In this document: piece by piece, positions 1 to 25,828 of the stretch
Position numbering within the stretch: position 1 is the stretch's first letter
Layout of the letters: every line of letters starts with the position of its first letter
The notes under the pieces: model-generated
The model's database searches: none
What the model saw: only the letters and a program-made list of their open reading frames with translations
What the model was told of the DNA's origin: nothing
Program-made: the position numbers and the translations under genes
DNA from: an uncultured Lachnospiraceae bacterium
GTDB taxonomy: Bacteria > Bacillota > Clostridia > Lachnospirales > Lachnospiraceae
Direction of reading: 5' to 3'
Length of the DNA stretch: 64,000 bases
NCBI GenBank assembly: GCA_950022375.1
Contig: CATLLF010000008.1
Coordinates: 1 to 64,000 of the forward strand

Positions 1-44
1 TGAATTTTGTACTCCATGTCATATTTCCGTTGCTCTTTTGCCAT
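1..44 (-). CDS. 5' end of an unidentified gene running off the left edge (N-terminus MAKEQRKYDMEYKI...)
   Basis: Minus-strand ATG at 44 preceded by GGAGG (plus 52-56) at about 7 nt. Only 14 codons are visible, so no product call. Confidence 0.3.
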   Translation of the reverse strand, partial: MAKEQRKYDMEYKI

Positions 45-216: not shown

Positions 217-252
217 AAATGCCTGCATTCCAAAATGCAATACAGGCATTTT
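217..252 (-). terminator. Imperfect hairpin flanked by A-run and T-run, probable intrinsic terminator for paralog 1 (303..2306)
   Basis: aaaatgcctgcatt-ccaaa-atgcaatacaggcatttt, 50 bp past the stop of the minus-strand gene. Confidence 0.35.
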
Positions 253-302
253 CCACATTAAATTTCAGATATTTCACTAGTCTGCTTGACAGGGGAGCAG
301 TT

Positions 303-2306
303 TTATTGTTTGGTATCTGTTTCGTTGGTGGACGGCTTGGAGCAAATTGTTTCTGTTACAACATTTCCACCACCGACATTGATGGTAACTTCAACTTTAA
401 CATAATATTCGCCTGCTTTAGTTACAGTATATTCTGCGTCTTTCGTTTCAGCTACTTTTCCGTCAGCATCGTACCATGTGTAGGTAACGATTGTCCATAT
501 ATTTGCTGGCTCAACAGCAGCTTTTAAAACGATGGATGTCACTGCAGAGCCAGATACAGTTTCAACTTGATTTTCTGTTACTGTAGCAACTCCATTGAGA
601 ATATCAACAGAAATACCTGTGATGGCAGAAGAAGAAACAGGAGTAGTGATCTCACTTCCCTTAGTGATTGTCACAATAGGAAGAGGAGGCTCAATTATTG
701 GTCCATCTTCTGTCTTAATGGAAAGTTTAACATCAAATTCAGAAATAACCTCTTCACCCTTCTTTACAGTAAGAGTAATTGTTGTTTCATTAGCAATCTC
801 ACTGGAGGAAGCTGTGACAGTAAAGTCTTTATCATCTTCGCCTAAAGTGAAGTTGATTATACCAGTTGTTCCGGCATTAAGTTCAATTATAGAATTTTCC
901 TTGGTTGCAGAACCTGTCTGAGCCGTTTCGCCTTCGCCTACAGTCCAAATTACTGTGCCGGAGAATTCTGTTTCTGGATCTGGTGTTGATGGAGGTGTTG
1001 CCGGAACCATCGGAGCTTCTGGAGTCGGTTCTGGATCAGTTGTTACGGTGGAACTTTCGCCCGGCTTTACGGTTGTAGGGTTATTCCCATCAAGGTCTGT
1101 ATTAACAATTTCTTTGTCTGTATTGTTGGTGGTATCTACCTTAACACCTTCGTCAGCGCGGATTACGGTATTTTCTGCACCTTTGTTTGCCTCAACCTTA
1201 ACGTCTGCTTTTGCACTTACTTCAACAGCAACTTCTGTTGTGATCTCAGCGCCTGCCGCTTCCTTCTCAACGTTTACTTTTACATTGGCTGCTTCGCCGG
1301 TAATGGTAGTTTTAACTGGTTTTAGAAGATTGATAATCGCTTCTACCGCTGCTTTTGCCGTCTCAATAATAACATCAGCGTTTACATCTACAACGAGTTT
1401 TACTTCAGCGGAAATTTTTGTGCCTGCTGCGCTTTCTTCAATAACAACCGGAACAGCTTTTTCTGTATTGCCGCTGATGTTTACATCGCCTTTTGCAGCA
1501 ATATTTACACTGGAAATGCTTCCGCCAACGCCAACAATGTTAAGCTTTGGAGTTGCAGAAGAGATTGTTTTTGGTGCAAATATTATGTTTTTAATCTGTG
1601 CTTTATCCCCTACAACAAGTCTTGCATTTGGTGCTGTAATATGGAAAAGGTTGCCGATGGCACGTTCAAAAAATGTGGATTTTTTGATCTGTTCTACATT
1701 GATCTGCTTAAAACGGCCAAAGTTTGTAACTTCTGCATTTGGAGCATTTACCGTAAGAGTTCTGCGGGTATAGTTGTAAGGATTGATTGTAAAGTTCGTT
1801 TCTTTGTCAGTTTTAATTACAATATCGGTGCAGTCGCGGTTTGCAAGAGCAGCGTTTAACTGGCTCTGGGAACGAGCTACCGCATAGCCTTCTTTCTCGC
1901 TTACCACATTGATTTTTACCCAACTGGTAGAAGCAGTTATGTATTTTGCATTCGCAATTTTGTCTTTTTTCCATGCTTCCATTGTTTTTGTGTTTGTAAA
2001 TGCCAGAGCGCGGATCTCAAAGCTACCCGCATAAACAGGATACATGTAGCCGTAGCGGGACGAAACAACGCTTGCTGTGTTTGTAGCCTGGTTTACTTCC
2101 CACCATACAACGCCGGTGGTGCTGCCTTTGCCAAGTTTGGTCTGGATGATTTCCGGGTCAAAGTTGAAAAAGTTTTCCTCGGAATCAAGATTGATTGTGT
2201 TTCCCTTCGGCAGTTCTTTGATGCCGAGTTTTGTGATGTCATTTTTCTGTGCCGCCGCAATAACCAGACTTGTCGGTGCTGCTATGGCAAGCAGCATTGC
2301 GAACAC
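303..2306 (-). CDS. Secreted surface protein, paralog 1 of 3 (conserved N-terminal domain, Pro/Thr linker, C-terminal Ig-like domain). Ancestral initiator is ATA here.
   Basis: 667-aa ORF >70% identical over the N-terminal ~450 aa to the products of 2683..4388 and 5773..7776 (AAQKNDITKLGIK...GVVWWEVNQ...YPVYAGSFEIRALAF...ANRDCTDI). The in-frame codon that aligns with the paralogs' Met (preceded by AAAGGAG) is ATA at 2337-2339. The longest ORF starts at a GTG inside the signal peptide. Confidence 0.6.
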   Translation of the reverse strand: MFAMLLAIAAPTSLVIAAAQKNDITKLGIKELPKGNTINLDSEENFFNFDPEIIQTKLGKGSTTGVVWWEVNQATNTASVVSSRYGYMYPVYAGSFEIRALAFTNTKTMEAWKKDKIANAKYITASTSWVKINVVSEKEGYAVARSQSQLNAALANRDCTDIVIKTDKETNFTINPYNYTRRTLTVNAPNAEVTNFGRFKQINVEQIKKSTFFERAIGNLFHITAPNARLVVGDKAQIKNIIFAPKTISSATPKLNIVGVGGSISSVNIAAKGDVNISGNTEKAVPVVIEESAAGTKISAEVKLVVDVNADVIIETAKAAVEAIINLLKPVKTTITGEAANVKVNVEKEAAGAEITTEVAVEVSAKADVKVEANKGAENTVIRADEGVKVDTTNNTDKEIVNTDLDGNNPTTVKPGESSTVTTDPEPTPEAPMVPATPPSTPDPETEFSGTVIWTVGEGETAQTGSATKENSIIELNAGTTGIINFTLGEDDKDFTVTASSSEIANETTITLTVKKGEEVISEFDVKLSIKTEDGPIIEPPLPIVTITKGSEITTPVSSSAITGISVDILNGVATVTENQVETVSGSAVTSIVLKAAVEPANIWTIVTYTWYDADGKVAETKDAEYTVTKAGEYYVKVEVTINVGGGNVVTETICSKPSTNETDTKQ

Positions 2307-2621
2307 AAGGAAAAATGCCAGTCCTTTTTTTCTGCTTATAAAAGCTCCTTTCTGGTTGGGATATCAGACAAAAAAGTGTTCTGTTTGCATGATATTATAA
2401 TGATTACATAAATAAACTATTTATATTATACCACATTTGGATAATTTATGAAACAGAAAAAATTCATAAATTTTAAAGGAATTTGTAAGAAAATATGACG
2501 AAAAATAGATAGGGGCTTTTGGGGATTTGTTAAAGTTTTCAAAGAGAGTGGGGGAGAAGAAGCGAAATCAAGTAGGAAAAAAAGAAATTTTTTTATGTGC
2601 TGTTTTAGGGCAAAAGATTAG

Positions 2622-2651
2622 CGCCCGCTGCTGGAAAAGCAGCGGACGCGA
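2622..2651 (-). terminator. GC-rich hairpin downstream of paralog 2 stop
   Basis: gcgcccgctgctgg-aaaa-gcagcggacgcg immediately 3' of the minus-strand gene ending at 2683. A-run on the plus strand 5' of it. Confidence 0.3.
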
Positions 2652-2682
2652 AAAGATTTTTAATATTTACCTGTAAGAAAAG

Positions 2683-4388
2683 TTACTGGTTAGTACCTTC
2701 TGTATTTTCGGTATCTTCTGGAGTTTCTGTATCAGTAGATGGTGCATTGGAAGGAATATCCGTTCCGTTTACTGTTACAACAACATGATAAGTAGTCGTT
2801 CCAGCTTCTTTTACTTCAACAACATAGGTATTTTTTGTTGCTCCTTCGATTGCTGCGGTTGTGTCACCGTTATTAGCAAACCACTGATAAGAAGGCGCTG
2901 TATTTTCTGGAACACCTTCAACAACAGCTGTTAAGGTTACTTTACCAGATACAGAAGAACCAGATACAGCAGAAGCAACTACAGTAACAACACCATCATT
3001 TACATTAGAAACTGTAATGGAAGAACCACTAACAACCTCACTTGACTCACCTGTAACCTTTACAGAAATTTTTACAGGATCAATAGGGGTTGGTTCTGGA
3101 GTTGGAGTTGGTGTTGATGGAGGTGTTGCTGGAAGCAATGGTGCATCTGGAGTCGGTTCTGGAGCGGTTGTTACAGTTGCGCTCTCGCCCGGCTTTACAG
3201 TTGTAGCATTGTTTCCATCAAGGTCTGTATTGACGATTTCTTTATCTGTATTGTTGGTAGTATCTACCTTAACACCTTCGTCAGCACGGATTACAGTATC
3301 CTCTGCACCCTTGTTTGCCTCAACCTTAACGTCAGCCTTTGCATTAACTTCAACAGTAACTTCTGTTGTAATCTCAGCGCCAGCTGCTTCCTTCTCAACG
3401 TTTACAGTTACGTTAGTAGCCTCGCCTGTGAGAGCGGTCTTAACTGGCTTAAGAAGGTTGACAATAGCTTCTACAGCAGCTTTGATAATAACGTCAGCGT
3501 TTACATCTACAACGACTTTTACTTCAGCGGAAATATTTGCACCTGCTGCGCTCTCCTCAACAACAACTGGAACAGGTGCTGTTGTTGCGCCGCTGATGGT
3601 TACATTGCCCTTAGAAGCGATGCTTACATTCTTAACCTGAGCCTTCTCTGCTACGACAAGTCTTGCATTCGGAGCAGTAAAGCGGAAGAAGTTGCCGATT
3701 GCACGCTCAAAGAATGTGTTGTCTTTGATTTCTTCTACATTGATCTGCTTAAAACGACCAGAGTTGTCAACGTCTGCATTCGGAGCCTTTACGGTCAGAG
3801 TTCTGCGAGTATAGTTGTAAGGCTTGATTGTAAATGTGATTTCTTTATCAGTATCGATTACGATATCTGTACAGTCACGGTTTGCAAGGGCAGAATTTAA
3901 CTGGCTCTGGGAACGAGCTACCGCATATCCTTCCTTCTCACTTACTACATTGATTGTTACCCAGCCTGTAGAAGCAGTGATGTACTTTGCATTTGCAACT
4001 TTGTCCTTTTTCCATGCTTCCATAGTCTTTGTGCTTGTGAAAGCAAGAGCACGGATCTCAAAGCTGCCTGCATAAACAGGGTATACATGTCCGTAGCGGG
4101 AGGAAATAACGCCTGCGGTGTTAGTATCCTGATTTACTTCCCACCATACAACACCAGTGGTGCTGCCTTTGCCAAGTTTGGTCTGGATAATTTCAGGATC
4201 GAAGTTGAAAAAGTTTTCCTCGGAGTCGAGAATGATTGTGTTTCCCTTCGGCAATGCTTTGATGCCGAGTTTTGTGATGTCATTTTTCTGTGCAGCTACG
4301 GCTGAAACTGCCGGGCTTGTCGGTACTGCCATCGCAAGCAGCATTACGAACACAAGAAAAAATGCCAATCCTTTTTTCCTGTTCATGT
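2683..4388 (-). CDS. Secreted surface protein, paralog 2 of 3
   Basis: ORF 2683..4419. Likely start MNRKKGLAFFLVFVMLLAMAVP at the ATG ending at 4388, preceded by AAAGGAG. Signal peptide, conserved N-terminal domain, PT-rich linker (PEPTPDAPLLPATPPSTPTPTPEPTP), C-terminal Ig-like domain. Confidence 0.75.
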
Positions 4389-4776
4389 TCAAAATCTCCT
4401 TTCTGGTTGTTTGGATCATTGTTTAGTTTCTTTTTGTCCTCCTTCCCCATAAAATGAGTTTATCCGCCTGCAAAATGACTTAACCTATGTACAAAGATAT
4501 AGAAATTGTAAATCTCATAATGCATAAAACGGACTTTTTTAATTATACTGTATATAAGCCATGAATGCATATAGGGAAATTTCACAAATTTTAGATAAGA
4601 TTATCAGACACAATACATAAAAATAGTTAAGATATGGAATAAGAATAGGGAAAATTTGGGTAGTATGGATGTTACTAGAAAAGACAGAAAAATCGGAGTT
4701 GGATGTAAAATACTAAAATTGGGATAATATTACTTATTATAACTAATTTATATTTGCAAACAGGGGGAGATTTTTT

Positions 4777-5676
4777 ATGCAGCATGAAAATGATTACGGA
4801 TACATACGAGAATGTGAAAAAATACCACTTTCTTTTCCGCCGCAGCATCAAGATCGACAACCAGGATTTGAATATTTCATGGAGCCGAAACCAATATCGA
4901 AACGAGCTTGGCACGAAAAAAAGTTAAGAGGAAAAACAGCGGTTATTACAGGAGGAGACAGCGGAATTGGAAGGGCTGTTGTCTATGATTTTGTCAGGGA
5001 AGGTGCGTATGTTGCGATAATATATTACGATGAAGAACAAGATGCAAAAGAAACTGCAGATAAGGTTAGACAAATGGGCGGAGAATATTTGTTGATCAAG
5101 GGAGATTTAAAAGAGCGATGTTTTATTAAAGAGTGTATTGATTGTGTGATAAAACGTTTTGGGAAAATTGATATTCTGGTCAACAATCATGCAGTTCAAT
5201 TTGTACAGCAGAGTATTCTTGATATTTCGCCAGAACAATTAACGCTGGTATTTCAAAATAATATTATTTCGTATTTTTACTTGATACAAGCTGCTTTGCC
5301 CTACATGAAAGAAGGGAGCAGTATTATCAATACAACGTCGGTAACAGCATACGAAGGAAATAAAGAATTAATCGATTACAGTGCAACAAAAGGAGCAGTG
5401 GTTTCTCTGACAAGGTCTCTGGCGCTTTCTCTAGTTGAGAGAGGAATCCGTGTAAATGCTGTTGCGCCTGGTCCAATCTGGACTCCTTTGATTCCGGCTT
5501 CTTATTCGGCAGAAGCGGTTTCCACTTTTGGTCGAAAAACATCGCGGGTGCCGATGATGCGGGCAGGTCAGCCTTGTGAGGTTTCGCCTTGTTATGTTTT
5601 TCTTGCGTCGGATGATGCTTCTTATATGACAGGGCAGGTAATGCATCCAAATGGCGGAACGATTGTCGGATCGTAA
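4777..5676 (+). CDS. SDR-family NAD(P)-dependent oxidoreductase (YhdF/YghA-like)
   Basis: TGGDSGIGRA Rossmann motif, NNHA, and YSATKGAV (YxxxK catalytic motif). N-terminal extension typical of the YhdF/general-stress-protein subgroup. Confidence 0.85.
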   Translation: MQHENDYGYIRECEKIPLSFPPQHQDRQPGFEYFMEPKPISKRAWHEKKLRGKTAVITGGDSGIGRAVVYDFVREGAYVAIIYYDEEQDAKETADKVRQMGGEYLLIKGDLKERCFIKECIDCVIKRFGKIDILVNNHAVQFVQQSILDISPEQLTLVFQNNIISYFYLIQAALPYMKEGSSIINTTSVTAYEGNKELIDYSATKGAVVSLTRSLALSLVERGIRVNAVAPGPIWTPLIPASYSAEAVSTFGRKTSRVPMMRAGQPCEVSPCYVFLASDDASYMTGQVMHPNGGTIVGS

Positions 5677-5691
5677 AATTTTTTGTTGAAT

Positions 5692-5726
5692 CCCCTATCC
5701 CTGGTAGGATAGGGGATTTTTTTGAT
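5692..5726 (+). terminator. Intrinsic terminator between the SDR gene and paralog 3; possibly bidirectional
   Basis: cccctatcc-ctggtag-gataggggatttttttg, with an A/T run on the 5' side too. Confidence 0.7.
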
Positions 5727-5772
5727 TCCATAAGAGGAATGCTACAGGGGGGCATTCTGGTAATTCACCATT

Positions 5773-7776
5773 TTATGGAGTTGTGTTCGTTCCTCCGCCG
5801 GAAGAATCTGCGGCGGGAATTGTCTGCGTTGTGCCATCTGCCAGTTTTATTGTTACTTGAACGAAGTAAGCTGTTGTACCTGCCTCGTTGACAGTAACCG
5901 TACAAGAAGCGGAAGTAGAAACTGGAGTTGTACCTCCTTCCAGATACCAGCTGTAGGAAGTTACTGTTGCGCCCTCTGGGAGACCTTCAACGTCTGCAGT
6001 CATTGTAACAGATGCAGAACCAGTGATAGAACCACCAGTTACAACAGCAGATGTGGTTATTGTAACAGCGTTGCCATTTACAACTGGATTTGCAGTAATA
6101 GAAGAACCTGTGGAAACAGATACATTTGTTGTAACCTTTACGGTTGGGGATGTAGGCTCTGGTTCTTCCGGTGTACCGCTCGGAGAAGGAGACGGCTCTT
6201 CTGGTGTACCGCTAGGGGAAGGAGACGGCTCTTCTGGTGTACCGCTAGGAGAAGGAGACGGCTCTTCTGGTGTACCACTAGGAGAAGGAGACGGCTCTTC
6301 TGGTGTACCACTAGGAGAAGGGGACGGCTCTTCTGGTGTACCGCTAGGAGAAGGAGACGGCTCTTCTGGTGTACCACTTGGAGAAGGAGACGGCTCTTCC
6401 GGCGTACCGCTCGGAGTTGGTTCCGGTGTTGGAGTGGATGGGTTCGATGGTGTTGATGGATTGGATGGTGTAGATGGCGTTTCGGTTGGTGTTGTTACAG
6501 TGGTGTTCTCACCTGGCTTTACAGTAGAAGCATTGTTGCCGTCCAGATCTGTGTTGACAATTTCCTGATCTGTTTTGTTATCGGCCTCTACTTTAACACC
6601 TGCGTCCTGACGGATTACCGTATTTTCAGCACCCTTGTTTACTTCCAGCTTTATATCAGCTTTTGCGCTGACTTCAACAGCAACTTCTGTTGTGATTTCA
6701 GCACCTTTCGCTTCCTTCTCAACATTTAATTTAACGTCGGAAGCCTCGCCGCGGATCGCTGCTTTTACTGGTTTTAACAGGTTGATAATGCTTTCTACTG
6801 CCGCTTTTGCAGCTTCAATTACAACATCAGCATGAACATTCAGTACTACTGTTACCTCTGCTGCAACTTTTGCACCAGAAGCAGTTTCCTCGACAACAAC
6901 CGGAACAGCTTCTTTTGTGCTGCCGCTCAATGTTACCTCACCTTTTGCAGCGATGCTGACATTGGAAATGCTTCCGCCACCGCCGACAATATTAAGCTTT
7001 GGAGCAGCGATTGCAGAACTCGGTGCGAAAGTTACATTTTTCACTTGCGCTTTGTCTGCGACAACAAGTCTTGCGTTCGGTGCAGTAAAGCGGAAGAAGT
7101 TACCAACCGCACGCTCAAAGAACGTAGAGTCTTTGATCTGTTCTACATTGATCTGCTTAAAACGGCCGGAGTTGTCAACATCCGCATTTGGAGCGTTGAT
7201 GGTCAGTGTTCTGCGGGTGTAGTTGTAAGGCTTGATAATAAAATTGGTTTCCTTGTCTGTCACGATATGGATGTCGGTGCAGTCGCGATTTGCAAGAGCC
7301 GCATTTAACTGGCTCTGTGTGCGCGCTACAGCATATCCTTCCTTATCGCTTGTCACTTGGATTTTTACCCATTCGGTAGAAGCAGTGATGTACTTTTCAC
7401 CGGCAACTTTATCTTTTTTCCACGCATTCATGTTCTTTGTATTTGCGAATGCCAGAGCGCGGATTTCAAAGCTGCCTGCATAGACAGGGTATACATGTCC
7501 GTAACGGGAAGATATAACCCCGGTGGTATTGGTCTGCTGGTTTACTTCCCACCAGACGATGCCTGTTGTTTTTCCTTTTCCAAGCTTGGTCTGAATAATC
7601 TGGGGATCGAAATTAAACGAGTCTCCAACTGCCATTGTATTATTTTTTGGCAGTACTTTGATACCAAGCTTTGTGATGTCGTTTTTCTGTGCTGCAGATG
7701 TCGGAACAGATGGAACCGTCATTGCGAGCATCATAACAAATACGAGGAAAAACGCCAATCCCTTCTTTTTGCTCAT
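5773..7776 (-). CDS. Secreted surface protein, paralog 3 of 3 (contains an 8x PSPSPSGTPEE linker)
   Basis: ATG at 7776 preceded by AAAGGAG. MSKKKGLAFFLVFVMMLAMTVP signal peptide. Same conserved N-terminal and central domains as paralogs 1 and 2. The Pro-rich linker is expanded to 8 tandem 11-aa units. C-terminal Ig-like domain. Confidence 0.8.
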   Translation of the reverse strand: MSKKKGLAFFLVFVMMLAMTVPSVPTSAAQKNDITKLGIKVLPKNNTMAVGDSFNFDPQIIQTKLGKGKTTGIVWWEVNQQTNTTGVISSRYGHVYPVYAGSFEIRALAFANTKNMNAWKKDKVAGEKYITASTEWVKIQVTSDKEGYAVARTQSQLNAALANRDCTDIHIVTDKETNFIIKPYNYTRRTLTINAPNADVDNSGRFKQINVEQIKDSTFFERAVGNFFRFTAPNARLVVADKAQVKNVTFAPSSAIAAPKLNIVGGGGSISNVSIAAKGEVTLSGSTKEAVPVVVEETASGAKVAAEVTVVLNVHADVVIEAAKAAVESIINLLKPVKAAIRGEASDVKLNVEKEAKGAEITTEVAVEVSAKADIKLEVNKGAENTVIRQDAGVKVEADNKTDQEIVNTDLDGNNASTVKPGENTTVTTPTETPSTPSNPSTPSNPSTPTPEPTPSGTPEEPSPSPSGTPEEPSPSPSGTPEEPSPSPSGTPEEPSPSPSGTPEEPSPSPSGTPEEPSPSPSGTPEEPSPSPSGTPEEPEPTSPTVKVTTNVSVSTGSSITANPVVNGNAVTITTSAVVTGGSITGSASVTMTADVEGLPEGATVTSYSWYLEGGTTPVSTSASCTVTVNEAGTTAYFVQVTIKLADGTTQTIPAADSSGGGTNTTP
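6161..6424 (-). repeat. 33-bp tandem repeat x8 (coding; PSPSPSGTPEE units inside paralog 3)
   Basis: ggctcttctggtgtaccgctaggagaaggagac repeated head-to-tail with a few synonymous/third-base differences. Confidence 0.9.
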
Positions 7777-8291
7777 AGTGCAAAAATCTCCTTTCTTGGT
7801 TTTGTTTGGAATAAAACCGTATTACTTTGCCCTCCATATTTTGCGGAAGTAATCTAATTGCTCTTGCAAATGAAGCCGCCGCAGGGCGCAATTTAGATGT
7901 ATTTTCATTATACAACATAGTTCTTCTTTCTATCTACGGCACGAATTCACAAATTTACAGAAAAATCCAATTAAGAAATTTTGCATAACATCCAACGGAC
8001 TTCTTTCAGAACAACAGATAGTTTTATGCATGTTCCATTTATGCATAAATTCTTTGGCTGGAGTATATAAGCGATAAAAATACTTAATGGAAAAACTAAG
8101 AAAAGCATTTCTTGTATTGCAGTTACACTGTGAAAATTTATTTTTTAAAGGTGTGTATGGAAATTGAGATGTAGTTGTGGTAAAAATTTTGGCGAGTGCT
8201 TATGATTTATACAGAAAACTCTTGTAATGAGGACTTTTTTTTAATATAATTTATTATGATAAAGAATAATTTTATCAAGAGGGAGAACAAA

Positions 8292-9164
8292 ATGGAAGAG
8301 ATGGAAGAATGTATTGCGAAACGCAGGATAAAGGATAGTATTTTTACAAACCTTTTTGGAGAGAAAAAATATTTGATACAACTTTACCGTACCATTCATC
8401 CTGAGGATATAAGGACGACAGAGAGCGAGCTTACTGACATTACCATAAAAAATATTTTAACAGATGGACTTTACAATGATTTGGGGTTTCGGGTTGGGAA
8501 TAAGGTTGTGATTCTTGTGGAAGCTCAATCTACTTGGACAATGAATATTATTGTTCGGATATTGATGTACTTGGTTCAGACTTATCATAATTATTTTGAA
8601 CATGAAAAAATGGATTTGTACAGCAGCAAAAAAATACAGCTTCCAAAGCCGGAATTGTATGTGATTTACACAGGCGAAAGAACAGCAAGACCAGATATTA
8701 TTTCTCTTTCGGAAGAATTTTTTGACGGACAGGGATCTGCTGTTGAGGTGAAAGTAAAAATGCTCTATGGTGAAAAAGGAAATGATATTATCAGTCAGTA
8801 TGTAAATTTTACAAAAGTGTATAATGAGCAACTGAAACAGTATGGCAGAACCAGAAAAGCAGTTATGGAAACCATTCGAATTTGTAAAAATAAGAATGTG
8901 TTAAAGGAATATCTTGAAGCCAGAGAAAAGGAGGTTGTAATAATTATGATGGCATTATTTGACGAAGAACAAGTTATGCGAAATTATGTAGCAAGAAAAG
9001 AAAAAGAAGCTGTTGAGAGAGCGACAGAAGAAACGGCACGGGAAACAGCAATAAAAATGCTGAGGTCGGGAAAATTTTCTGTGGAGGAAGTTGCGGAGTA
9101 TATTACAAAGTTGTCCATTGACGATATTAGAGAAATTGAAGCTGATCTAATAAACTGCGGATAA
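8292..9164 (+). CDS. Rpn/YhgA-like PD-(D/E)XK recombination-promoting nuclease (putative transposase family)
   Basis: About 290 aa from the ATG after AGAGGGAG. IFTNLF...GLYNDLGF...VVILVEAQS resembles the D...(I/V)E(V/A)Q core of Rpn-family proteins. Charged C-terminal helical tail (EEVAEYITKLSIDDIREIE) is typical of the family. Confidence 0.55.
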   Translation: MEEMEECIAKRRIKDSIFTNLFGEKKYLIQLYRTIHPEDIRTTESELTDITIKNILTDGLYNDLGFRVGNKVVILVEAQSTWTMNIIVRILMYLVQTYHNYFEHEKMDLYSSKKIQLPKPELYVIYTGERTARPDIISLSEEFFDGQGSAVEVKVKMLYGEKGNDIISQYVNFTKVYNEQLKQYGRTRKAVMETIRICKNKNVLKEYLEAREKEVVIIMMALFDEEQVMRNYVARKEKEAVERATEETARETAIKMLRSGKFSVEEVAEYITKLSIDDIREIEADLINCG

Positions 9165-9623: not shown

Positions 9624-10481
9624 ATGGTTCGGTCGGAAAATCTTATATTTGAATATATCAGGCGCGACGAGGAAGGGAATGTAGAATCGATTACAAAAGC
9701 TCTCGATGATGTTTCGATCACAATTTCCAAGGGCGATTTTGTGGCGATTCTTGGACATAATGGTTCTGGAAAATCAACGCTTGCAAAACATATTAACGCA
9801 TTGCTTGTTCCAACAGAAGGGACGCTTTTTGTGGATGGAATGGACACAAAAAACGAGGAGAAGATCTGGGAGATTCGGCAGGCTGCTGGTATGGTATTTC
9901 AAAATCCTGACAATCAGATTATTGCGACGGTGGTTGAGGAGGATGTTGGCTTTGGACCGGAAAATCTCGGCGTGCCGACAGAAGAGATCTGGGAGCGTGT
10001 AGAGAAAAGTCTGCGGGCAGTCGGCATGTACGAATATCGGAAGCATTCGCCAAATAAGTTGTCCGGCGGTCAGAAACAGAGAGTTGCAATTGCGGGGATT
10101 ATGGCGATGAAACCACAGTGTATTGTGTTGGACGAGCCTACAGCAATGCTTGACCCAAACGGGCGCAAGGAAGTAGTTCGGACGGTGCGGGAGCTAAACC
10201 AAAAAGAGGGCGTGACAGTACTTTTAATTACGCACTATATGGAAGAGGTAATTTATGCGGATAAAGTGATTGTGATGGATGACGGAAAGATTGTGATGCA
10301 GGGAACGCCGCGGGAGATTTTTGCTCAGGTGGAAAAGCTGAAAAGTTACCGGATGGATGTGCCGCAGGTAACAGAGCTTGCATACAAGCTAAAACAGGCA
10401 GGAATGCCGTTGCCGGATGGGATACTTTCGATTGAGGAATTTGTTGAGGCTGTTCGAGTGTGTGCAAAATCAGTAAGATAA
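9624..10481 (+). CDS. ecfA1: Energy-coupling factor transporter ATPase EcfA1
   Basis: Walker [23 protein letters not shown], Walker B VLDEPT, and the C-terminal EcfA-specific region. First gene of the ecfA-ecfA'-ecfT set. Confidence 0.9.
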
Positions 10482-10653
10482 GTAAGACAGCCAAAAAACA
10501 GCATATTAAGAGGACAATTACTTATTAGGATTTTTCAGGTAAGTGGAAGTTGAAGTTTTCGGGTGTGTGCAAAATCAGTAAGATAAGTAAGACAGCCGAA
10601 AAACAGCATATCAAGAGGACGATTGTTTATTAGGATTTTTCAGGTAAGTGGAA
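10458..10653 (+). repeat. Tandem duplication of ~91 bp (two copies, ~94% identical, period 105 bp) spanning the ecfA1 stop codon
   Basis: gtgtgtgcaaaatcagtaagataagtaagacagcc...ttattaggatttttcaggtaagtggaa at 10458-10548 and again at 10563-10653. Confidence 0.85.
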
Positions 10654-12505: not shown

Positions 12506-12570
12506 AAAATGAAGGGAAAAGAGAACAAGTTTATTCTGTATAAAAAGCAGTGCAGAAATGGAGGATTACT

Positions 12571-14733
12571 ATGAAAAAAATTTTATCTTTACTGCTTGCA
12601 GCGTGTATGCTGCTGGCTGTACTTCCAGAGATGGATGTGAATGCGGCAGAGTGTGCGGAGTATTCGGGAAGCAATAAAAATGAGCAGGATTATAAAGGTT
12701 ATGCGGCGGACACCATAAAATCCTATTTGACAGTCTGTGAGGACGGATCGTTGATGCGCTTCCAGTATATTGATGATAATGGCTATATCGCAGAGTATTA
12801 TGATGCTTCCTATCAGCTGCTTGATACAAAAGTAATTGATATAGAACTGCCGATTTTCGGCGCGTTTTATGCTTCAAAAGATTATTATTTTATCCTGACA
12901 GGGCAGAAAAATAAAAAAGAATCTGCGTCTGTTGAGTGCTATCGAATTACAAAATATGATAAGGACTGGAATAAAATAAAATCGGCAGGGCTTTACGACT
13001 GCAATACTACAATACCGTTTCGGGCAGGCTCTGCGCGGATAACAGAAGACGGAAATTTTCTTCTGATTCGCACCAGCCATGAAATGTATACTTCGGATGA
13101 TGGAAAAAATCATCAGGCAAATGTGACAATTCAGGTAAACATGGACACGATGGAAATTACAGATTCCTTTACTTCTATAATGAATACTTCTTACGGTTAT
13201 GTCAGTCATTCTTTTAATCAGTTTATTAAAATTGAGAATGGAAAGATTGCAGCAGTAGATCATGGAGATGCTTATCCTCGATCCGTTGTATTGATTCAGT
13301 ACGATACCAATGTTCAGACAGGAAAATTCAGTGAATTTAGTGCGATGCCGTGCAAGGTGACGAATGTTATTGAGATTCCCGGACAAATCGGGGATAATTA
13401 TACAGGCATAACAGTAGGTGGTTTTGAAATTTCAGACACTTCTTATCTTATTGCGGGCAATATGATAGATTTAAAACAATTTAAATCTAATAGTGAGGAT
13501 ACGAAAAATATTTTTATTGCGTCGGTGTCAAAACAGACGGGCGAAGTGACAGTAAGTCAGATTACGAACTTTCAGGAAGGTCAAACAACCACGCCGCAGT
13601 TTGTTAAACTGAATAATGAACGTTTTGTTTTGTTATGGGGCAGAGAGCACTTGGTATATTATACGGAGATTGATAAGAACGGCAGACAAACCAGTGAAAT
13701 TTACAGTGTGGAAGGAAGCTTGTCGGACTGTGTTCCAGTTGTTTTTAACGAGAAATTTGTATGGTATACATGGAAGAACAACAGCGTTGATTTTTATGAG
13801 ATCGATCAGAAGGATCTTTCAAAGACAAAAAAAATTACAGTGGATAATGGACATACTTTTGAATTGAAAGAGATAAAAAATCATCTTACCACTTTGCAAT
13901 GTACCAAATGCAAAAAAGAGAAAAAAGTGAATTCTCCTATGAATTTTGGAATGTGGTGGAGGACAGAAAAGGAGACGGATGGTTATTATTATTCCGATTA
14001 TTCAAATCCATTTGAGATAGGCGAAAAGCTTGAGTACTGGATTAATCCTTCGTGGGATGGGCTGGTTGATGCAAAAGAAATGAACGAGGATTTTGTATTA
14101 AAATGTTCCGACCCGGAGGCAATTGAGATTACATATATTGATGAAAGAAAAGGAATCATATCTTTCCAGAAAATCGGGGAATATACACTGACAATTCAGC
14201 ATCTTTATGATGATACTGTTTCAAAAGAATTTACATTTGTTGTAAGCGGTCAGCCGGATAAAGTTTCTTTAAATAAAAAGACTCTTACTTTAAATCCAAA
14301 GAAAACGTACACGTTAAAACCAACGCTTGGTCCAGAAGGTGCTGCTACAACTTACACTTGGACCAGCGGCGATAAGAAAGTTGCAACAGTTGATAAAAAT
14401 GGAAAAGTGACAGCAGTCAGCAAGGGCAAAACAAAAATAACAGTAAAGACAGAGAACGGAAAAAAAGCGACCTGCACAGTCACAGTAAAAGAAGCGCCAA
14501 AAAGCGTGAAACTATCAAAAGAGATTACATTGAAAAAAGGCGAAACTTACTCGCTTAAGGCAGTTTTAACGCCTTCCGATGCCTATACAACCTACACTTG
14601 GACAAGCGATAATAAAAAGGTTGCCACTGTGGATAAAAAAGGAAAAGTGACAGCGGTCGGCAAAGGAACAGCAAAAATTACAGTAAAAACGGCAAATGGA
14701 AAAACAGCAGTCTGCAAGGTCACGATAAAATAA
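12571..14733 (+). CDS. Secreted protein with two C-terminal bacterial Ig-like (Big_2) domains
   Basis: ATG at 12571 after GGAGG. Signal peptide MKKILSLLLAACMLLAVLPEMDVNA. C-terminus has two copies of L(N/K)PKKTYTLK...TYTWTSGDKKVATVDKNGKVTAVSKGK...ITVKT, typical Big_2. Confidence 0.8.
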   Translation: MKKILSLLLAACMLLAVLPEMDVNAAECAEYSGSNKNEQDYKGYAADTIKSYLTVCEDGSLMRFQYIDDNGYIAEYYDASYQLLDTKVIDIELPIFGAFYASKDYYFILTGQKNKKESASVECYRITKYDKDWNKIKSAGLYDCNTTIPFRAGSARITEDGNFLLIRTSHEMYTSDDGKNHQANVTIQVNMDTMEITDSFTSIMNTSYGYVSHSFNQFIKIENGKIAAVDHGDAYPRSVVLIQYDTNVQTGKFSEFSAMPCKVTNVIEIPGQIGDNYTGITVGGFEISDTSYLIAGNMIDLKQFKSNSEDTKNIFIASVSKQTGEVTVSQITNFQEGQTTTPQFVKLNNERFVLLWGREHLVYYTEIDKNGRQTSEIYSVEGSLSDCVPVVFNEKFVWYTWKNNSVDFYEIDQKDLSKTKKITVDNGHTFELKEIKNHLTTLQCTKCKKEKKVNSPMNFGMWWRTEKETDGYYYSDYSNPFEIGEKLEYWINPSWDGLVDAKEMNEDFVLKCSDPEAIEITYIDERKGIISFQKIGEYTLTIQHLYDDTVSKEFTFVVSGQPDKVSLNKKTLTLNPKKTYTLKPTLGPEGAATTYTWTSGDKKVATVDKNGKVTAVSKGKTKITVKTENGKKATCTVTVKEAPKSVKLSKEITLKKGETYSLKAVLTPSDAYTTYTWTSDNKKVATVDKKGKVTAVGKGTAKITVKTANGKTAVCKVTIK

Positions 14734-19802: not shown

Positions 19803-22340
19803 ATGCTTGCAAATAACAACCTAAAAATATGTCACACATTTGCGTGGCGAGATTTCAAATTTCACAAAGCAAAAAACTTACTGCTGGCTTTTGCGGTGGT
19901 TTTGATTACAGGACTGTATGCCTTCACTTTTCTTCTGGGCAGCTCAGTAGAAAATGCGTTTCTGCTTAATTATGAGTACCGATATGGCTCCACGAGTCAC
20001 ATCCTCTACCATGGACTGACCGCACATCAGGCAGATAAATTAGCGCAGCATCCCAATGTAAAAAGCACGGTTCGGATCAGCGCTCTGGGTCAGCTCTCTG
20101 ATGAGATGATGGGTGTTCGCAGTGTTAAGCTGGCAGTAACCGATCAGGACTATGCCAAGAGCATCCTCTCTGTTCCTACAACGGGGCGTTTGCCGGAAAA
20201 AGCGGGAGAAATCGCTCTGGATGAATTTACCATGGACTCTCTGGGGGTTCTTCATGAACTGGGTGCTCCGGTGTCTATTCAGTGGACAGATGGCAAGGGA
20301 GAAAAGCACAGTACTGATTTTATCCTCTGCGGATGGTGGGCAAGCCCCACAAACTTCACAGAAGCTTGTGCTTGGGTGACAGCAGAGTGTGCTGCCAGAC
20401 TTCTGACCGGATACCCGGATACAGCATCCGTCACAATGGGGGTCGATCTCCATCAGCCAAAGGAATTGGAGCAGCAGGCGCAGCAGATCATAACAGATCA
20501 GGGCGTAAATCAGGTTACTTACACTACCAATTTGGCCTATAACGAAGCCAGAATGGAAATGGCAAGTAAGCAGGCAACACCGTTCTACATTCCTGCATTG
20601 GTTGTGCTTTTGTGTGGTTTTTTGATGATTTACAGTATCATTCATATGACCATGGATCAGGATACTCGCTTTTTTGCGGGTCTGAAAACTTTGGGCATGA
20701 CACCGCGGCAGATCCGATGGTTTCTGTTGGAAAAGGCCGCGTTGCTCTCTCTTTTGGGTCTGCTCCCCGGCTGGCTGATGGGATTTGGCATTCACTATTT
20801 GGTTACACCGCAGATCGTGACTGGCATGGAGCAAAACCCGGCAATCTACTTCCTGTCCTGGGAGCCGTTCGCTCTCGCAGTACTCAGTACCTTCGGAACC
20901 GTTTTACTGGCGTACTTTCTGCCTGCTGCTCGGACAGGCGGAATGATACCGACACAGATGTTGCGGGATTTGGATGAACGAATGCCGAAAGGAAGAGGGC
21001 GTAACAGTACCGGGAAAGTCAGTATTTTTCGGCTGGCCTTTCGCTCCCTGTGGAGAAATAAAGGGCGTACCCTTCTTTCATTGCTGTCTTTGCTGTTCTC
21101 CCTTCTATTGCTCTGCTCTACCTGGATTCGCTACACCAGCTACGACGAAGCACTGTACTTAAACGGGATGTCTCCGTGGGACTACACCATCGAGGATGGC
21201 TCTGCGGCTTCCACCGTACAGCGGTATAACCCCAATAATCGTGCTATCACAGAACAGATTGTCAGCGATCTGCGTGGACGCAGTGAAGTTTTGGAAGTAA
21301 GCGTCCTGAAATCTAAGGAAGTGAAGCTGACGGCTTCTGATGAGCTGCGCCAGCGAATCGTGGATTTTTACAATGAACCTTACGACGAAACCATGACCCG
21401 CAGAGAAAGTCAGGCGGCCTACCCCGATTGGTGTACCGGTTTGGAGTGCCTGGAACAGACAGGAAGCTATTATGGTATAGTGATTGCGTTGGAGGACGCC
21501 TACCTGCGGTATGTGCTGGATAACTGTCCAGTCACCAGCGGCGATTTTGACGCGGAACAGTTTGCGGATGGGCGGTATGTTGTGGCCGCAGGTGCTTATG
21601 CGGAGGGCGTGTCCTCGCCTGCTGCTGGAGAAACTGTGGAGCTGGGGGGAGAGCAACTTACTGTGCTGGCTTCTGTTATGGGGGATACCGCATTTTTAAG
21701 TGGAAGTAACAGTTTGGAGTCCAGCTTTCATCTGGCTTATTTTGTACCACTGTCCCTATTTGATCAGCTGTTCCCTGATGAGGGTATCCGTCAGCTGGCA
21801 GTCAACATTGACCATGGTGGGCAGGAGGAATTTGAACGCTATCTCAGTTTATATAAGCAGGGGTTGAATCGCGGGATTGGGGTTTGGATGCGCAGCGATT
21901 ATCAAGAAGCTTTCCAGAACGCCAGATTGAATGAATGCCTGCCGAAGCTGATTGTCGGGATTGTGTTGATGACCATTGGTCTGCTGAACTTTGCCAATAT
22001 GTTGGTTACAAAAACAATGGTGCGAAAAAAAGAATTTGCAGTCTATCAGAGCCTTGGTATGACAAGCAGACAGCTGAAATGGCTTTTGCTGACAGAGGGC
22101 TTGCTTCATGCGGTTCTTTTGACCGTAATTTTGCTGCCAGTAACTTTCTTTGTGACCTGGTTTGGGATGCCAGCAGTTTTTTCACAGATAAATACTTGGT
22201 GTATAACCTATCATTATACGCTGGCTCCTCTATGGGCAGCCTTGCCTATTATGCTGTTTATGGCAGTGGCAGTACCCCTAATGTGCTGTCGGTTTATTGA
22301 GAAAGGAAGCATTACAGAGCGTTTGCGGATCGCAGTGTGA
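19803..22340 (+). CDS. ABC transporter permease with two FtsX domains (BceB/MacB-type), copy 1
   Basis: 845 aa; TM helix then a large extracytoplasmic domain, repeated twice. FtsX-like 4-TM bundles with GLKTLGMTPRQI and SLGMTSRQLKW motifs. Confidence 0.8.
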   Translation: MLANNNLKICHTFAWRDFKFHKAKNLLLAFAVVLITGLYAFTFLLGSSVENAFLLNYEYRYGSTSHILYHGLTAHQADKLAQHPNVKSTVRISALGQLSDEMMGVRSVKLAVTDQDYAKSILSVPTTGRLPEKAGEIALDEFTMDSLGVLHELGAPVSIQWTDGKGEKHSTDFILCGWWASPTNFTEACAWVTAECAARLLTGYPDTASVTMGVDLHQPKELEQQAQQIITDQGVNQVTYTTNLAYNEARMEMASKQATPFYIPALVVLLCGFLMIYSIIHMTMDQDTRFFAGLKTLGMTPRQIRWFLLEKAALLSLLGLLPGWLMGFGIHYLVTPQIVTGMEQNPAIYFLSWEPFALAVLSTFGTVLLAYFLPAARTGGMIPTQMLRDLDERMPKGRGRNSTGKVSIFRLAFRSLWRNKGRTLLSLLSLLFSLLLLCSTWIRYTSYDEALYLNGMSPWDYTIEDGSAASTVQRYNPNNRAITEQIVSDLRGRSEVLEVSVLKSKEVKLTASDELRQRIVDFYNEPYDETMTRRESQAAYPDWCTGLECLEQTGSYYGIVIALEDAYLRYVLDNCPVTSGDFDAEQFADGRYVVAAGAYAEGVSSPAAGETVELGGEQLTVLASVMGDTAFLSGSNSLESSFHLAYFVPLSLFDQLFPDEGIRQLAVNIDHGGQEEFERYLSLYKQGLNRGIGVWMRSDYQEAFQNARLNECLPKLIVGIVLMTIGLLNFANMLVTKTMVRKKEFAVYQSLGMTSRQLKWLLLTEGLLHAVLLTVILLPVTFFVTWFGMPAVFSQINTWCITYHYTLAPLWAALPIMLFMAVAVPLMCCRFIEKGSITERLRIAV

Positions 22341-22587: not shown

Positions 22588-23259
22588 ATGGAAGCAATTT
22601 TGAAGGCTACCGGTCTTAAAAAATATTACGGAAAGGGTGAAGCGTTGGTCAAGGCATTGGATGGTATGGATCTGGAGATCGAGCGTGGTAAATTTACTGC
22701 GATTATTGGCACCTCTGGATCTGGAAAATCTACGCTGCTGAATATGCTGGGTGGACTGGATACTCCCAGCGAGGGCAGTATTCGAATTGGAAATACGGAA
22801 CTGGCAAAGTTAAATAGCGAACAGGCTACGATTTTCCGGCGCAATCACATCGGTTTCATTTTTCAAAATTACAATCTGGTGCCAGTACTCAGTGTTTGGG
22901 AAAATATAGTTTTCCCCATCTCTCTGGATGGTCGTAAGTCTGATGAAAAGTTTATCATGGAGATTGTTCGTCTGCTTGGTTTGGAGAAGAAGCTGGATTG
23001 TCTGCCGAACAATCTTTCCGGCGGACAGCAGCAGAGAGTGGCGATTGCCCGTGCGCTGGCCTCTAAGCCTGCTATTATCCTGGCGGATGAACCTACCGGT
23101 AATCTGGACTCAAAAACCAGTGACGATGTGATTGGGTTGCTGAAAATGACCAGCAAAGAATTTAACCAGACAATCGTGATGATTACCCATAACCCGGAAA
23201 TTGCACAGATGGCGGATCGTATTGTCCGAATTGAGGACGGCCGCATTGTGTCTCAATAA
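22588..23259 (+). CDS. ABC transporter ATP-binding protein, MacB/FtsE-like, copy 2 (~65% identical to copy 1)
   Basis: GTSGSGKST, LSGGQQQRVAIAR, ILADEPTGNLD. Confidence 0.85.
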   Translation: MEAILKATGLKKYYGKGEALVKALDGMDLEIERGKFTAIIGTSGSGKSTLLNMLGGLDTPSEGSIRIGNTELAKLNSEQATIFRRNHIGFIFQNYNLVPVLSVWENIVFPISLDGRKSDEKFIMEIVRLLGLEKKLDCLPNNLSGGQQQRVAIARALASKPAIILADEPTGNLDSKTSDDVIGLLKMTSKEFNQTIVMITHNPEIAQMADRIVRIEDGRIVSQ

Positions 23260-23269
23260 GGGGGGATGC

Positions 23270-25828
23270 ATGATGAAAACAGTATTCAAACCAATTCAAA
23301 CACTGAATCAGCGTACTTTTAAGAAAAATAGAGGTCGGAACCTAGTAGCGATCATCGCCATCTTAATGACTACGATTATGTTTACCACCCTCTTTACCCT
23401 GGCACAGAGTATAAGCAAAAACATGGTGGAAATGACATTCCGGCAAACTGGTTATGATGGTCAAGCATCCTTTAAGACCATCACCGCAGAGCAGTTTTCG
23501 TTGATCGCGAATCACCCCGATGTTGCAGAAGCCGGAGAAAGCCTTGTTCTTGGTCTTGCACAAAACAAAAAACTGGGTGGCAAACAGGTTGAGATCCGTT
23601 GGAGCAGTGACATCAATGCCAAGCATTCCTTTGCTATGCCTGCCACCGGAACAATGCCAACAGCATCGGATGAGATCGCTCTGGACACACGAATCCTCGA
23701 TCGCCTTGGTATTCCCCATCAGCTGGGGGAAACTATAACGCTGGAATGGCGCAAGGATCTTGCAAAGGATGAGTTAACCGCCTCCACCTTTACCCTCTGC
23801 GGTTTCTGGGAAGGCAACGAATCTGTCTATGCCAGCATGGCTTGGGTAAGCCGGGAATTTGCGGATGAGATGATCGGTGACTATGTTGCTGACGGAAAAA
23901 CAAGCATTTTAGGTCTGCATACCGCACAAGTGATTCTGCATAGCGACCGTAATATTGAGACCACCATGGAGAATATTTTGGCAGACACTGGACTGACGGA
24001 CTTGAAATTTGGCGTGAATCTGGCATATTCACCAGAGATGAATGCTACCGCAGCGCAGGAAAGCATTCCTATGTATTTGGGTATGGTGCTGGTGTTTCTT
24101 GCTGGCTATCTGATTATTTATAATATCTTTCAGATCAGCGTTACTGCCGACATCCAATTCTATGGAAAGCTGAAAACACTGGGAACTACCACGAAGCAGA
24201 TCAAGAAACTTATTTATGGTCAGGCAAACCGGCTGTGCGTGATCGGTATCCCAATGGGTCTTCTTCTGGGCTGGCTGCTGGGCATAGTGTTGGTTCCTGT
24301 GCTGATGGGACAGATGGAGGGCAATGCTGTGATTTCCTCCAATCCTGTGATTTTCCTTGGCTCTGCCCTTTTTGCATGGTTGACAGTTACGATTTCCTGC
24401 CTGCGTCCGGCAAGGCTGGCTGGTAAGGTTTCTCCGATCGAAGCTCTGCGGATGAGTGATGCCGCCGCAAGCAAGAAGAAAAGCAAACGCACCCGGAATG
24501 GCGCTTCCATTACCAGTATGGCTTGGGCGAATCTGGGGCGGAACAAAAAACGGACAGTGACAGTTATATGCTCTCTGAGCTTGGGGTTGGTTTTACTCAG
24601 CTGTTTCTACGCTAAGAATGCTGCTTTTGATATGGAAAAATACCTGTTTGAGCTGACGATCAGTGACTTCCAGCTGGATGATCGCAGCAGTGCAGATTAT
24701 ATTGGCGGATATGACCCTTATGGTTTCACCCTGAATGCTGAACTGGTGGCATCCGTGGAAGGATTGGCTGGTTTGGAAGCGATTGGTCATCAATATTCTC
24801 ATCAATTTAAACTGACACTGGATGATGAGACTGTGCAGAATATCGGCGCCTTCTATACACAGGAAATGCTGGACGATTGGGCAACTTACGATTCGTCCGG
24901 TTCTGCTCAGATAAAAAACGCCATGAAAACCCGTGAAGTGATCGGTGTACTGTATGGAATGGACGGTATCCCTCTGGATGCAATTACGCATGAGAGATAT
25001 TTGCTCTCCGGCAGCTATGATGCAGAAAAATTTGCCAGCGGCGACTATGTGTTGGCTATTGGTCCTGCCATAGATTCCACAGACACAGAAAGAAAGACTG
25101 CATTGCCTGTTCCTACCGTTGGAAGCAGTATTGCGCTTGAAAATCGCACCTATACGGTAATGGCTGTTGTATATCCGCTGCAAGCTGTGGAGGAAGGAGC
25201 TTATGAAGGCGGTGTACAAAATCAGCACTGCATGAGCTTTATTATTCCTGCTTCAGTATTCCGGCAGCAGTGGCCGGAGAATACGCTGCGAAGACTGTTC
25301 TTCAATGTGGACGATAAGCATATTCCCGCAGCACAAGAGATGCTCGATGTGTATACCAAGACCATAGACACCAGTCTGCCTGTGACATCCCGCAAAACCA
25401 TGACAGAGCAGTATAAGACAGAAACACAGGCGTCGGCAGTTATGGGAAATACCATCAGTGTGATTATTGCTCTGGTGGGTGTGCTTAACTTTATCAATTC
25501 TATGGTTACAGCCATTGTTTCACGCAAAAAAGAGTTTGCCATGATTCAGTCCGTGGGAATGACCAAGCGTCAGCTGCGGAAGATGCTGATTTGTGAGGGA
25601 CTGGATTACGCAGCGATTACGCTGATCGTTTCTTATATTGTCAGCACTCTAGCCGTTGGGATCGGTGTTCGTGCCATAACAGCCAATGAGTTCAGCACTT
25701 TCCATTTTACTCTGATGCCGCTGATGATTTGTACCCCGATCCTTCTGGCTTTTGCGGTGCTGATCCCGTTTCTGTGTTTCAAGAATTTAGAAAAGCAGAG
25801 CATTGTTGAGCGATTGAGAACAGAATAA
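23270..25828 (+). CDS. ABC transporter permease with two FtsX domains, copy 2
   Basis: ATG at 23270 after AAGGGGGG. About 850 aa with the same topology as copy 1 (GKLKTLGTTTKQI, SVGMTKRQLRKM). Confidence 0.8.
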   Translation: MMKTVFKPIQTLNQRTFKKNRGRNLVAIIAILMTTIMFTTLFTLAQSISKNMVEMTFRQTGYDGQASFKTITAEQFSLIANHPDVAEAGESLVLGLAQNKKLGGKQVEIRWSSDINAKHSFAMPATGTMPTASDEIALDTRILDRLGIPHQLGETITLEWRKDLAKDELTASTFTLCGFWEGNESVYASMAWVSREFADEMIGDYVADGKTSILGLHTAQVILHSDRNIETTMENILADTGLTDLKFGVNLAYSPEMNATAAQESIPMYLGMVLVFLAGYLIIYNIFQISVTADIQFYGKLKTLGTTTKQIKKLIYGQANRLCVIGIPMGLLLGWLLGIVLVPVLMGQMEGNAVISSNPVIFLGSALFAWLTVTISCLRPARLAGKVSPIEALRMSDAAASKKKSKRTRNGASITSMAWANLGRNKKRTVTVICSLSLGLVLLSCFYAKNAAFDMEKYLFELTISDFQLDDRSSADYIGGYDPYGFTLNAELVASVEGLAGLEAIGHQYSHQFKLTLDDETVQNIGAFYTQEMLDDWATYDSSGSAQIKNAMKTREVIGVLYGMDGIPLDAITHERYLLSGSYDAEKFASGDYVLAIGPAIDSTDTERKTALPVPTVGSSIALENRTYTVMAVVYPLQAVEEGAYEGGVQNQHCMSFIIPASVFRQQWPENTLRRLFFNVDDKHIPAAQEMLDVYTKTIDTSLPVTSRKTMTEQYKTETQASAVMGNTISVIIALVGVLNFINSMVTAIVSRKKEFAMIQSVGMTKRQLRKMLICEGLDYAAITLIVSYIVSTLAVGIGVRAITANEFSTFHFTLMPLMICTPILLAFAVLIPFLCFKNLEKQSIVERLRTE

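Follow-up and report, generated by a model that had tools for sequence, protein, structure and literature searches.

Three minus-strand genes near the start of a 64,000-nucleotide stretch of DNA from an uncultured Lachnospiraceae bacterium (assembly GCA_950022375.1, contig CATLLF010000008.1, positions 1 to 64,000; hereafter the window) are paralogs, which we call p1, p2 and p3. We see about an even chance that they represent an unnamed family of adhesin-like surface proteins in mouse-gut Lachnospiraceae, exported by the Sec pathway and non-enzymatic. The adhesin-like reading fits a predicted fold that matches adhesin helices, the lack of a conserved catalytic constellation, the extracellular kinds of domain found in company with the conserved module, and a selection pattern that separates a constrained N-terminal part from exchanged C-terminal tails.

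The open reading frame (ORF) list shows long minus-strand ORFs at 303..2306, 2683..4419 and 5773..7776, as a first-pass annotation of this DNA had stated, and alignment confirms the three genes with refined starts for p2 and p1. Together with an oxidoreductase gene they form the following array:

303..2339, minus strand: paralog p1; the frame runs from an ATA at 2339..2337 to a stop at 303..305, and the ORF lister's start, GTG 2306, gives 667 residues
2683..4386, minus strand: paralog p2; 567 residues from the ATG at 4386, which is preceded by a ribosome-binding site (RBS)
4777..5676, plus strand: SDR-family oxidoreductase (adh_short_C2) of 299 residues, between p2 and p3
5773..7776, minus strand: paralog p3; 667 residues

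The similarity among the three proteins is far beyond chance. p2 and p3 are 71% and 58% identical to p1 as aligned proteins, the conserved part of the genes is 72-84% identical in nucleotides, and long invariant runs extend through residues ~20-430 of all three, with divergence after the linker. Their domains are laid out as follows (p1 in the numbering from its GTG; helices as predicted):

2249..1893, minus strand: p1 head, residues 20-138
1892..1023, minus strand: p1 beta-helix, residues 139-428
residues 429-449, minus strand: p1 short Pro/Thr linker
959..687, minus strand: p1 extra beta domain, residues 450-540
686..306, minus strand: p1 PKD-like tail, residues 541-667
residues 1-33 and on to about residue 150, minus strand: p2 signal peptide and head
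3936..3172, minus strand: p2 beta-helix, residues 151-~405
3171..3037, minus strand: p2 Pro/Thr linker, residues ~406-450
3036..2686, minus strand: p2 Ig/PKD-like tail, residues 451-567
7776..7690, minus strand: p3 signal peptide, residues 1-29
7689..7345, minus strand: p3 head, residues 30-144
7344..6493, minus strand: p3 beta-helix, residues 145-~428
6492..6142, minus strand: p3 long Pro/Ser/Thr linker, residues 429-545
6164..6416, minus strand: 33-bp tandem repeat in the p3 linker, 7.7 copies, encoding SGTPEEPSPSP (11 residues)
6141..5776, minus strand: p3 Ig/PKD-like tail, residues 546-667

For p1, an AlphaFold2 model computed from 28 sequences of the family reached a mean predicted local distance difference test score (pLDDT) of 78.5, rising to about 90 or above at residues 140-420. 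It contains a beta-sandwich head with one helix (about residues 20-135), a capping helix at QSQLNAALA, then a long series of short strands that come in threes and repeat about every 28 residues, a disordered linker (residues 431-446), an extra beta domain of lower confidence that occurs in p1 only and, last, an Ig-like sandwich. The model thus predicts that the conserved region consists of a beta-sandwich head of ~115 residues and one continuous beta-helix of ~270-290 residues, which begins at the QSQLNxALANRDCTDI cap and is right-handed and three-stranded with about 9-10 rungs. The first-pass annotation had drawn an N-terminal domain of ~230 residues and a separate, central, repetitive beta-rich region; the conservation it saw is borne out, and its point of division is not. 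The predicted helix of p2 is 26 residues (about one rung) shorter than those of p1 and p3, and two relatives carry an insertion of 30-38 residues at the site of this gap.

The earlier view that the conserved N-terminal region belongs to no known family stands, and no mundane enzyme family emerged for it: residues 1-430 of p1-p3 have no Pfam match at E<=1, the conserved first ~430 residues have no match in NCBIfam or PHROGs, and the conserved region likewise found no usable match in PDB, either as a single sequence or as a profile, the profile search returning nothing below E 0.1. Modelled separately, the head gave a poor model (pLDDT 63.4) with no significant Foldseek match in PDB, the best being the PrtV PKD1 domain (E 0.38, TM-score 0.29). 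We also considered the head as a divergent Big_2 domain and rejected this, the hhalign probability being 0.2% with head-containing templates removed.

The C-terminal tails are mutually homologous (28-52% identity). Their assignment as Ig-like domains holds best for p1, whose tail matches PKD (PF00801) at 26.6 bits, over the cut-off of 23.5; the p3 tail reaches 18.3 bits against the same family, and the sole Pfam match of the p2 tail, K319L-like_PKD, scores 18.9 bits against a cut-off of 27, so that both are weak and below threshold. No anchor was found in p1-p3, in agreement with the first-pass annotation: their C-terminal parts have no LPXTG motif (two loose matches both lie in p3, at residues 24 and 251) and no hydrophobic segment. 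All three have Sec signal peptides and would be exported and cleaved, giving acidic mature proteins (pI about 4.7) of about 57-69 kDa. These signal peptides, together with a beta-helix fold known from many adhesins, make the proposed secreted, adhesin-like character plausible; surface location and binding are inferred.

The close relatives of p1-p3 form about 28 clusters, all from Lachnospiraceae metagenome-assembled genomes (MAGs), many with MGBC identifiers, those of the Mouse Gastrointestinal Bacteria Catalogue. One of these MAGs, MGBC103678, holds at least six family members on four contigs. The head is confined to a narrow subfamily; in distant relatives a Big_2 domain stands at its position, often with further Big_2 domains downstream. 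The beta-helix is much more widespread. A profile of the beta-helix only, searched against 1.84 billion representatives, matched 1014 proteins at E<=1e-3, of which 318 reach E<=1e-30, mostly from Clostridia. Among the best 150 matches, which are 245-2632 residues long, the first residue of the module lies anywhere from ~3 to ~330. Pfam annotation of 45 of these matches placed Big_2 after the module in 17, and also showed Big-like, Big_9, cadherin-like, LRR, Big_3/4 and Flg_new domains and single cases of GH10+CBM9 and of an EndoS-type GH18, all of them extracellular kinds. An N-terminal hydrophobic, signal-like segment is present in 143 of 170 relatives, and a C-terminal hydrophobic or sorting segment in none of the 170.

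Alignments of 26, 13 and 45 diverse members show no conserved catalytic constellation. The invariant or near-invariant columns are mostly hydrophobic, Gly or Asn; they include one Glu, one Gln and several Asn, whereas Asp, Lys, Arg and His are absent from them.

Purifying selection on head and helix is strong. Among the paralogs, head, core and central helix have ratios of non-synonymous to synonymous divergence (dN/dS) of 0.06-0.18 at dS 0.6-1.5, the latter indicating that the duplications are old, and between strains head and helix give dN/dS of 0.09-0.16. The tails show dN/dS of 0.46-0.90 (paralogs 0.46-0.76) at dS 0.8-1.9, which is near saturation. The origin of the tail differences is clearest between strains. 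We compared the window with L007 and L041, which are from the same species and about 94-99% identical in the array flanks. The p2 orthologs are 97-100% identical over nucleotides 1-1300 and, past that point, only 28-47% identical over the first 100 aligned tail columns, the three tail alleles being 32-39% identical as proteins. The breakpoint lies near 3091, inside the Pro-rich linker. Tail dS between strains (0.78-0.96) is about 10 times that of the same gene's head (0.06-0.11), indicating that recombination at the linker brought in anciently diverged alleles. The first-pass annotation had proposed diversifying selection; these comparisons instead point to constraint on head and helix and to tail differences that reflect replacement by old alleles, not rapid change in place, and positive selection is not demonstrated. 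No silent tail cassettes were found elsewhere in the window. A diversity-generating retroelement was considered as a source of tail variation and is unlikely, as differences between the tail alleles fall on synonymous as well as non-synonymous sites (dS 0.8-0.96), unlike the product of adenine-targeted mutagenesis; no reverse-transcriptase scan was made.

The linkers of p1-p3 differ in length, as the first-pass annotation had stated, and the array is not invariant among strains, where the locus varies in two further ways. p3 orthologs from three strains keep their tail and are 667, 634 and 612 residues long; the latter two, 33 and 55 residues shorter than p3 of the window, imply 4.7 and 2.7 copies of the linker repeat in place of 7.7. 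A more distant ortholog group shows comparable length polymorphism (731-859 residues). Gene copy number is one, two or three. A single gene lies between rplQ and ecfA1 in a related species (L046), the order p3-SDR-p2 occupies the same site in L007 and L041, and the window strain has p1 in addition. Another relative lies just after infA, beside the same ribosomal operon, and others lie elsewhere. At the left end of the window, on the minus strand (1..44), a frame that begins with an ATG behind an RBS, MAKEQRKYDMEYKI..., continues past the left edge; it may be the N-terminus of an IS3-family OrfA transposase, a tentative assignment. This element and p1 are both absent from L007 and L041, and the independent assemblies L001 and L002 end within 14 nucleotides of it, as expected at a repeated element. 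Contigs of GCA_948584295.1 and of several ENA assemblies match the window itself at 99.99-100% identity.

Taken together, these data suggest how the proteins might work and vary. Each would form a rod in which the lineage-specific head continues into the helix, followed by a flexible Pro/Thr/Ser linker and one or two PKD/Ig-like domains. Head and helix would perform a conserved job, likeliest the binding of a conserved ligand or retention at the surface, possibly via self-association, and the C-terminal Ig-like domain would serve as an exchangeable specificity or antigenic module. Tail alleles could be swapped by homologous recombination through one crossover in the linker or in the conserved head, and slippage in the 33-bp repeat would alter the reach of the tail. 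Growth of the array may always have taken place at the same site, between rplQ and ecfA1: a second gene would have come together with the SDR gene, and p1, the third, beside the putative insertion-sequence element.

Several observations weigh against the adhesin-like reading. Having no anchor, the proteins may just end up free in the medium, and p1, which has no canonical start codon, may be poorly expressed. A beta-helix fold also occurs in many polysaccharide lyases, hydrolases and depolymerases, glycoside hydrolases are fused to the module in some relatives, and the conserved Q/N/E/N residues of the first rungs could, judging from the alignments, form a ligand-binding or active site. The fold of the head, a beta-sandwich in the model, is unclassified. 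Database relatives are all unnamed or called 'hypothetical protein', with no annotation of localisation or binding, and no conserved partner genes were found around seven relatives. What recurs around those seven is a position beside the ribosomal-protein operon and a nearby Rpn-like gene. A literature search returned papers on other beta-helix adhesins and nothing on this family.

Alternatives differ chiefly in the role assigned to the helix. One possibility, which we regard as distinctly less probable than a conserved adhesin-like protein, is that head and beta-helix hold the protein to the cell, by non-covalent binding of a wall polymer or as a self-assembled coat, and that the part after the linker is an outward, exchangeable payload. 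Such an arrangement would be consistent with module starts within the first ~330 residues among the best 150 of ~1000 matches, with the very different payloads that follow (Ig-like, cadherin-like, LRR, GH10+CBM9, EndoS), with the lack of a C-terminal anchor in all 170 members, and with the strongest purifying selection falling on the module while the distal part varies. The case is positional and evolutionary, however; the module has no recognisable wall-binding motif and no match to the curated wall-binding families SLH, CWB and LysM, and beta-helices are usually the binding or catalytic part of a protein, not its anchor. A broader form of the same idea, to which we give somewhat less credence still, is that head and helix make up an unrecognised, Clostridia-wide N-terminal module for surface display, independent of sortase, SLH or other known anchors, with C-terminal payloads (here strain-specific Ig-like cassettes) exchanged at the linker. 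If so, such exchange would let the surface of gut Lachnospiraceae vary from strain to strain, for instance where IgA or phages exert pressure. An enzyme payload behind the module is seen most clearly in a 1406-residue protein from an Acetivibrio sp. MAG (L030, 9857..14074), in which the module (residues 41-304) is followed by CBM4_9, a GH10 xylanase and two CBM9 domains.

We consider it similarly doubtful that the proteins are secreted carbohydrate-active enzymes or carbohydrate-binding proteins, in which a divergent pectate-lyase-like helix would cleave or bind dietary, mucin or microbial polysaccharide and the Ig-like tails would be accessory. The beta-helix fold and the occasional glycoside hydrolase fusions are compatible with this role, and the window proteins share the predicted right-handed parallel beta-helix with pectate-lyase-fold lyases, hydrolases, epimerases and phage tailspike depolymerases. 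Unlike the pectate-lyase-like enzymes (PL1/PL6/PL9, GH28, GH87, GH110, AlgG-type), however, they match no curated catalytic family by profile, and their alignment columns hold no conserved acid or base residues, neither an Asp pair or triad nor a Lys/Arg Bronsted base with Ca-binding acids. A phage origin, as receptor-binding or tailspike-like genes of a prophage remnant or as a phage decoy or receptor, would suit the classic pattern of conserved N-terminus and variable C-terminus, but is very improbable, and the 'phage-receptor-like' character suggested by the first-pass annotation has no support, given the Sec signal peptides of p1-p3, a locus that in several species is flanked by the ribosomal-protein operon and ecfA1A2T and has no phage genes around it, the lack of a PHROG match, of a meaningful BFVD match (TM-scores at most 0.16) or of a relative on IMG/VR viral contigs, and no sign of trimeric tailspike features.

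Among characterised proteins, the adhesin-like reading brings the paralogs closest to three groups, and they differ from each. Autotransporter passengers (Antigen 43, UpaB and TibA of E. coli, Hap of H. influenzae, Fap2 of F. nucleatum) are only 6-13% identical to the window proteins; they belong to Gram-negative type V systems with a C-terminal beta-barrel translocator, whereas the window proteins come from a Bacillota host, place the helix at the N-terminus, followed by linker and Ig-like domains, and end in a PKD/Ig-like domain. Serine-rich repeat proteins (SRRPs) of Limosilactobacillus reuteri and PfbA of Streptococcus pneumoniae are anchored by sortase through LPXTG, and the SRRPs also have serine-rich repeats and an accessory Sec export system. 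PfbA and the SRRP binding region are both Gram-positive beta-solenoid adhesins; in the window proteins, LPXTG, a C-terminal hydrophobic segment and a serine-rich repeat region are all absent. Surface proteins with PKD or Big_2 domains likewise have C-terminal domains of the PKD/Ig-like kind, those of p2 and p3 being under Pfam thresholds, and no relationship of the window head to Big_2 was detectable. Although uncurated and uncharacterised, the family is of a familiar kind, that of secreted beta-helix and Ig-like surface proteins with variable distal parts. It is somewhat unusual in having no recognisable anchor, a strictly N-terminal helix module and a clean recombination boundary between head and tail among strains.

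The paralogs appear to be transcribed separately, and each retains its own promoter-like site. The signals around them are:

2425..2473, minus strand: p1 promoter-like site TTCATA-16-TATAAT with extended TG, motif AAATTTATGAATT just upstream
4579..4591, minus strand: p2 promoter region, motif AAATTTGTGAAAT, which precedes a GTATAAT -10 box
7907..7956, minus strand: p3 promoter-like site TAGATA-18-TATAAT, motif AAATTTGTGAATT just upstream
2621..2649, minus strand: intrinsic-terminator-like hairpin after p2, 12 pairs, 9 of them GC
5688..5719, plus strand: terminator-like hairpin of 13 pairs between the convergent SDR gene and p3
219..257, minus strand: inverted repeat (AATGCCTGCATT ... AATACAGGCATT) followed by a T run, 3' of the p1 stop, found by eye and unflagged by the terminator scan

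The motif AAATTTRTGAAWT occurs in the window only at 2461..2473, 4579..4591 and 7944..7956 (minus strand), each time upstream of a paralog, and at p1 and p3 it lies directly upstream of the -35-like hexamer. It may be a site for a shared regulator, an UP-like element or merely inherited promoter sequence. The hairpin after p2 suggests that p2 and p1 are separate transcription units; that at 5688..5719, called on the plus strand, might also serve p3, and the inverted repeat at 219..257 is a likely p1 terminator by its sequence.

Aligned upstream regions place the start of p2 at ATG 4386, behind AAAGGAG, and not at the upstream in-frame ATG 4419; the resulting protein of 567 residues is identical to database protein P0003. 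In p1 an ATA (2339..2337) stands at the position of the p2 and p3 ATG. The RBS, AAAGGAG, is intact, with a spacer 6 nucleotides shorter than in p2 and p3. The next possible starts are GTG 2306 and an ATG two codons downstream, and with either one the signal peptide would lose its charged n-region. Gene callers begin p1 at a downstream ATG (664 residues). The ATA site is covered by five contigs (L001-L005), all of them 99.99-100% identical to the window there. p1 may use a non-canonical start, carry a truncated signal peptide or be partially silenced.

The SDR gene, correctly placed inside the array by the first-pass annotation, is divergent from p2 and convergent with p3. Its product matches PF13561 (adh_short_C2, E 7.6e-59) and PF00106 (E 1.7e-45) in Pfam, and its nearest NCBIfam model is PRK06701 (370.9 bits, under the cut-off of 413). 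The gene accompanies the two-copy form of the locus in other strains, and no functional link to the array is evident.

A gene with weak matches only to Rpn/YhgA-like PD-(D/E)XK 'recombination-promoting nuclease/putative transposase' proteins adjoins p3 (8256..9164, plus strand). Counterparts lie at 12212..13204 in L024 and 9338..10330 in L048, the gene is truncated to 165 residues in L007, and one also lies directly downstream of a distant family member in Roseburia faecis. The alignment of the window with L002 breaks by this gene, at about 9057-9104, with a net length difference of 36 bp. The proximity could be coincidence, as such genes are perhaps abundant in these genomes, or could be tied to local recombination.

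Farther along the window, a 105-bp unit in 1.9 tandem copies (10453..10653, 93% match) overlaps the 3' end of ecfA1 and the ecfA1-ecfA2 spacer. Directly after ecfT, 12550..14733 (plus strand) encodes a protein of 727 residues that has Big_2, Big-like and Invasin_D4 matches only in its last ~140 residues, has no family match on its first ~590 and, by hmmsearch, falls outside the beta-helix family; in L046 the same position is taken by a counterpart of about 800 residues. An ORF of 872 residues (26304..28922, plus strand) matches the major-vault-protein 'shoulder' domain PF11978 (E 6.5e-15), which is unusual for a protein of bacteria, and lies downstream of two large FtsX-type permease genes (19803..22340 and 23201..25828). 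A carbohydrate-utilisation stretch on the plus strand (40742..42493, 45158..48049 and 52089..54737) includes a GH35 beta-galactosidase, a DUF5696 protein (E 7.8e-140) and a protein of 963 residues whose C-terminal half carries a solute-binding-protein domain.

Lachnospiraceae are dominant gut commensals, and to our knowledge their surface proteins are almost entirely uncharacterised. The locus offers a compact, concrete case of strain-level surface variation in this family, combining a conserved helix scaffold, a recombination-prone linker, interchangeable Ig-like tips, repeat-length polymorphism and stepwise amplification at a fixed site. The beta-helix module, an uncurated domain family with roughly a thousand representative clusters, would merit family definition. 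Should the scaffold turn out to retain proteins independently of an anchor, it would be relevant to protein display in these bacteria; otherwise it would represent another adhesin-like family.

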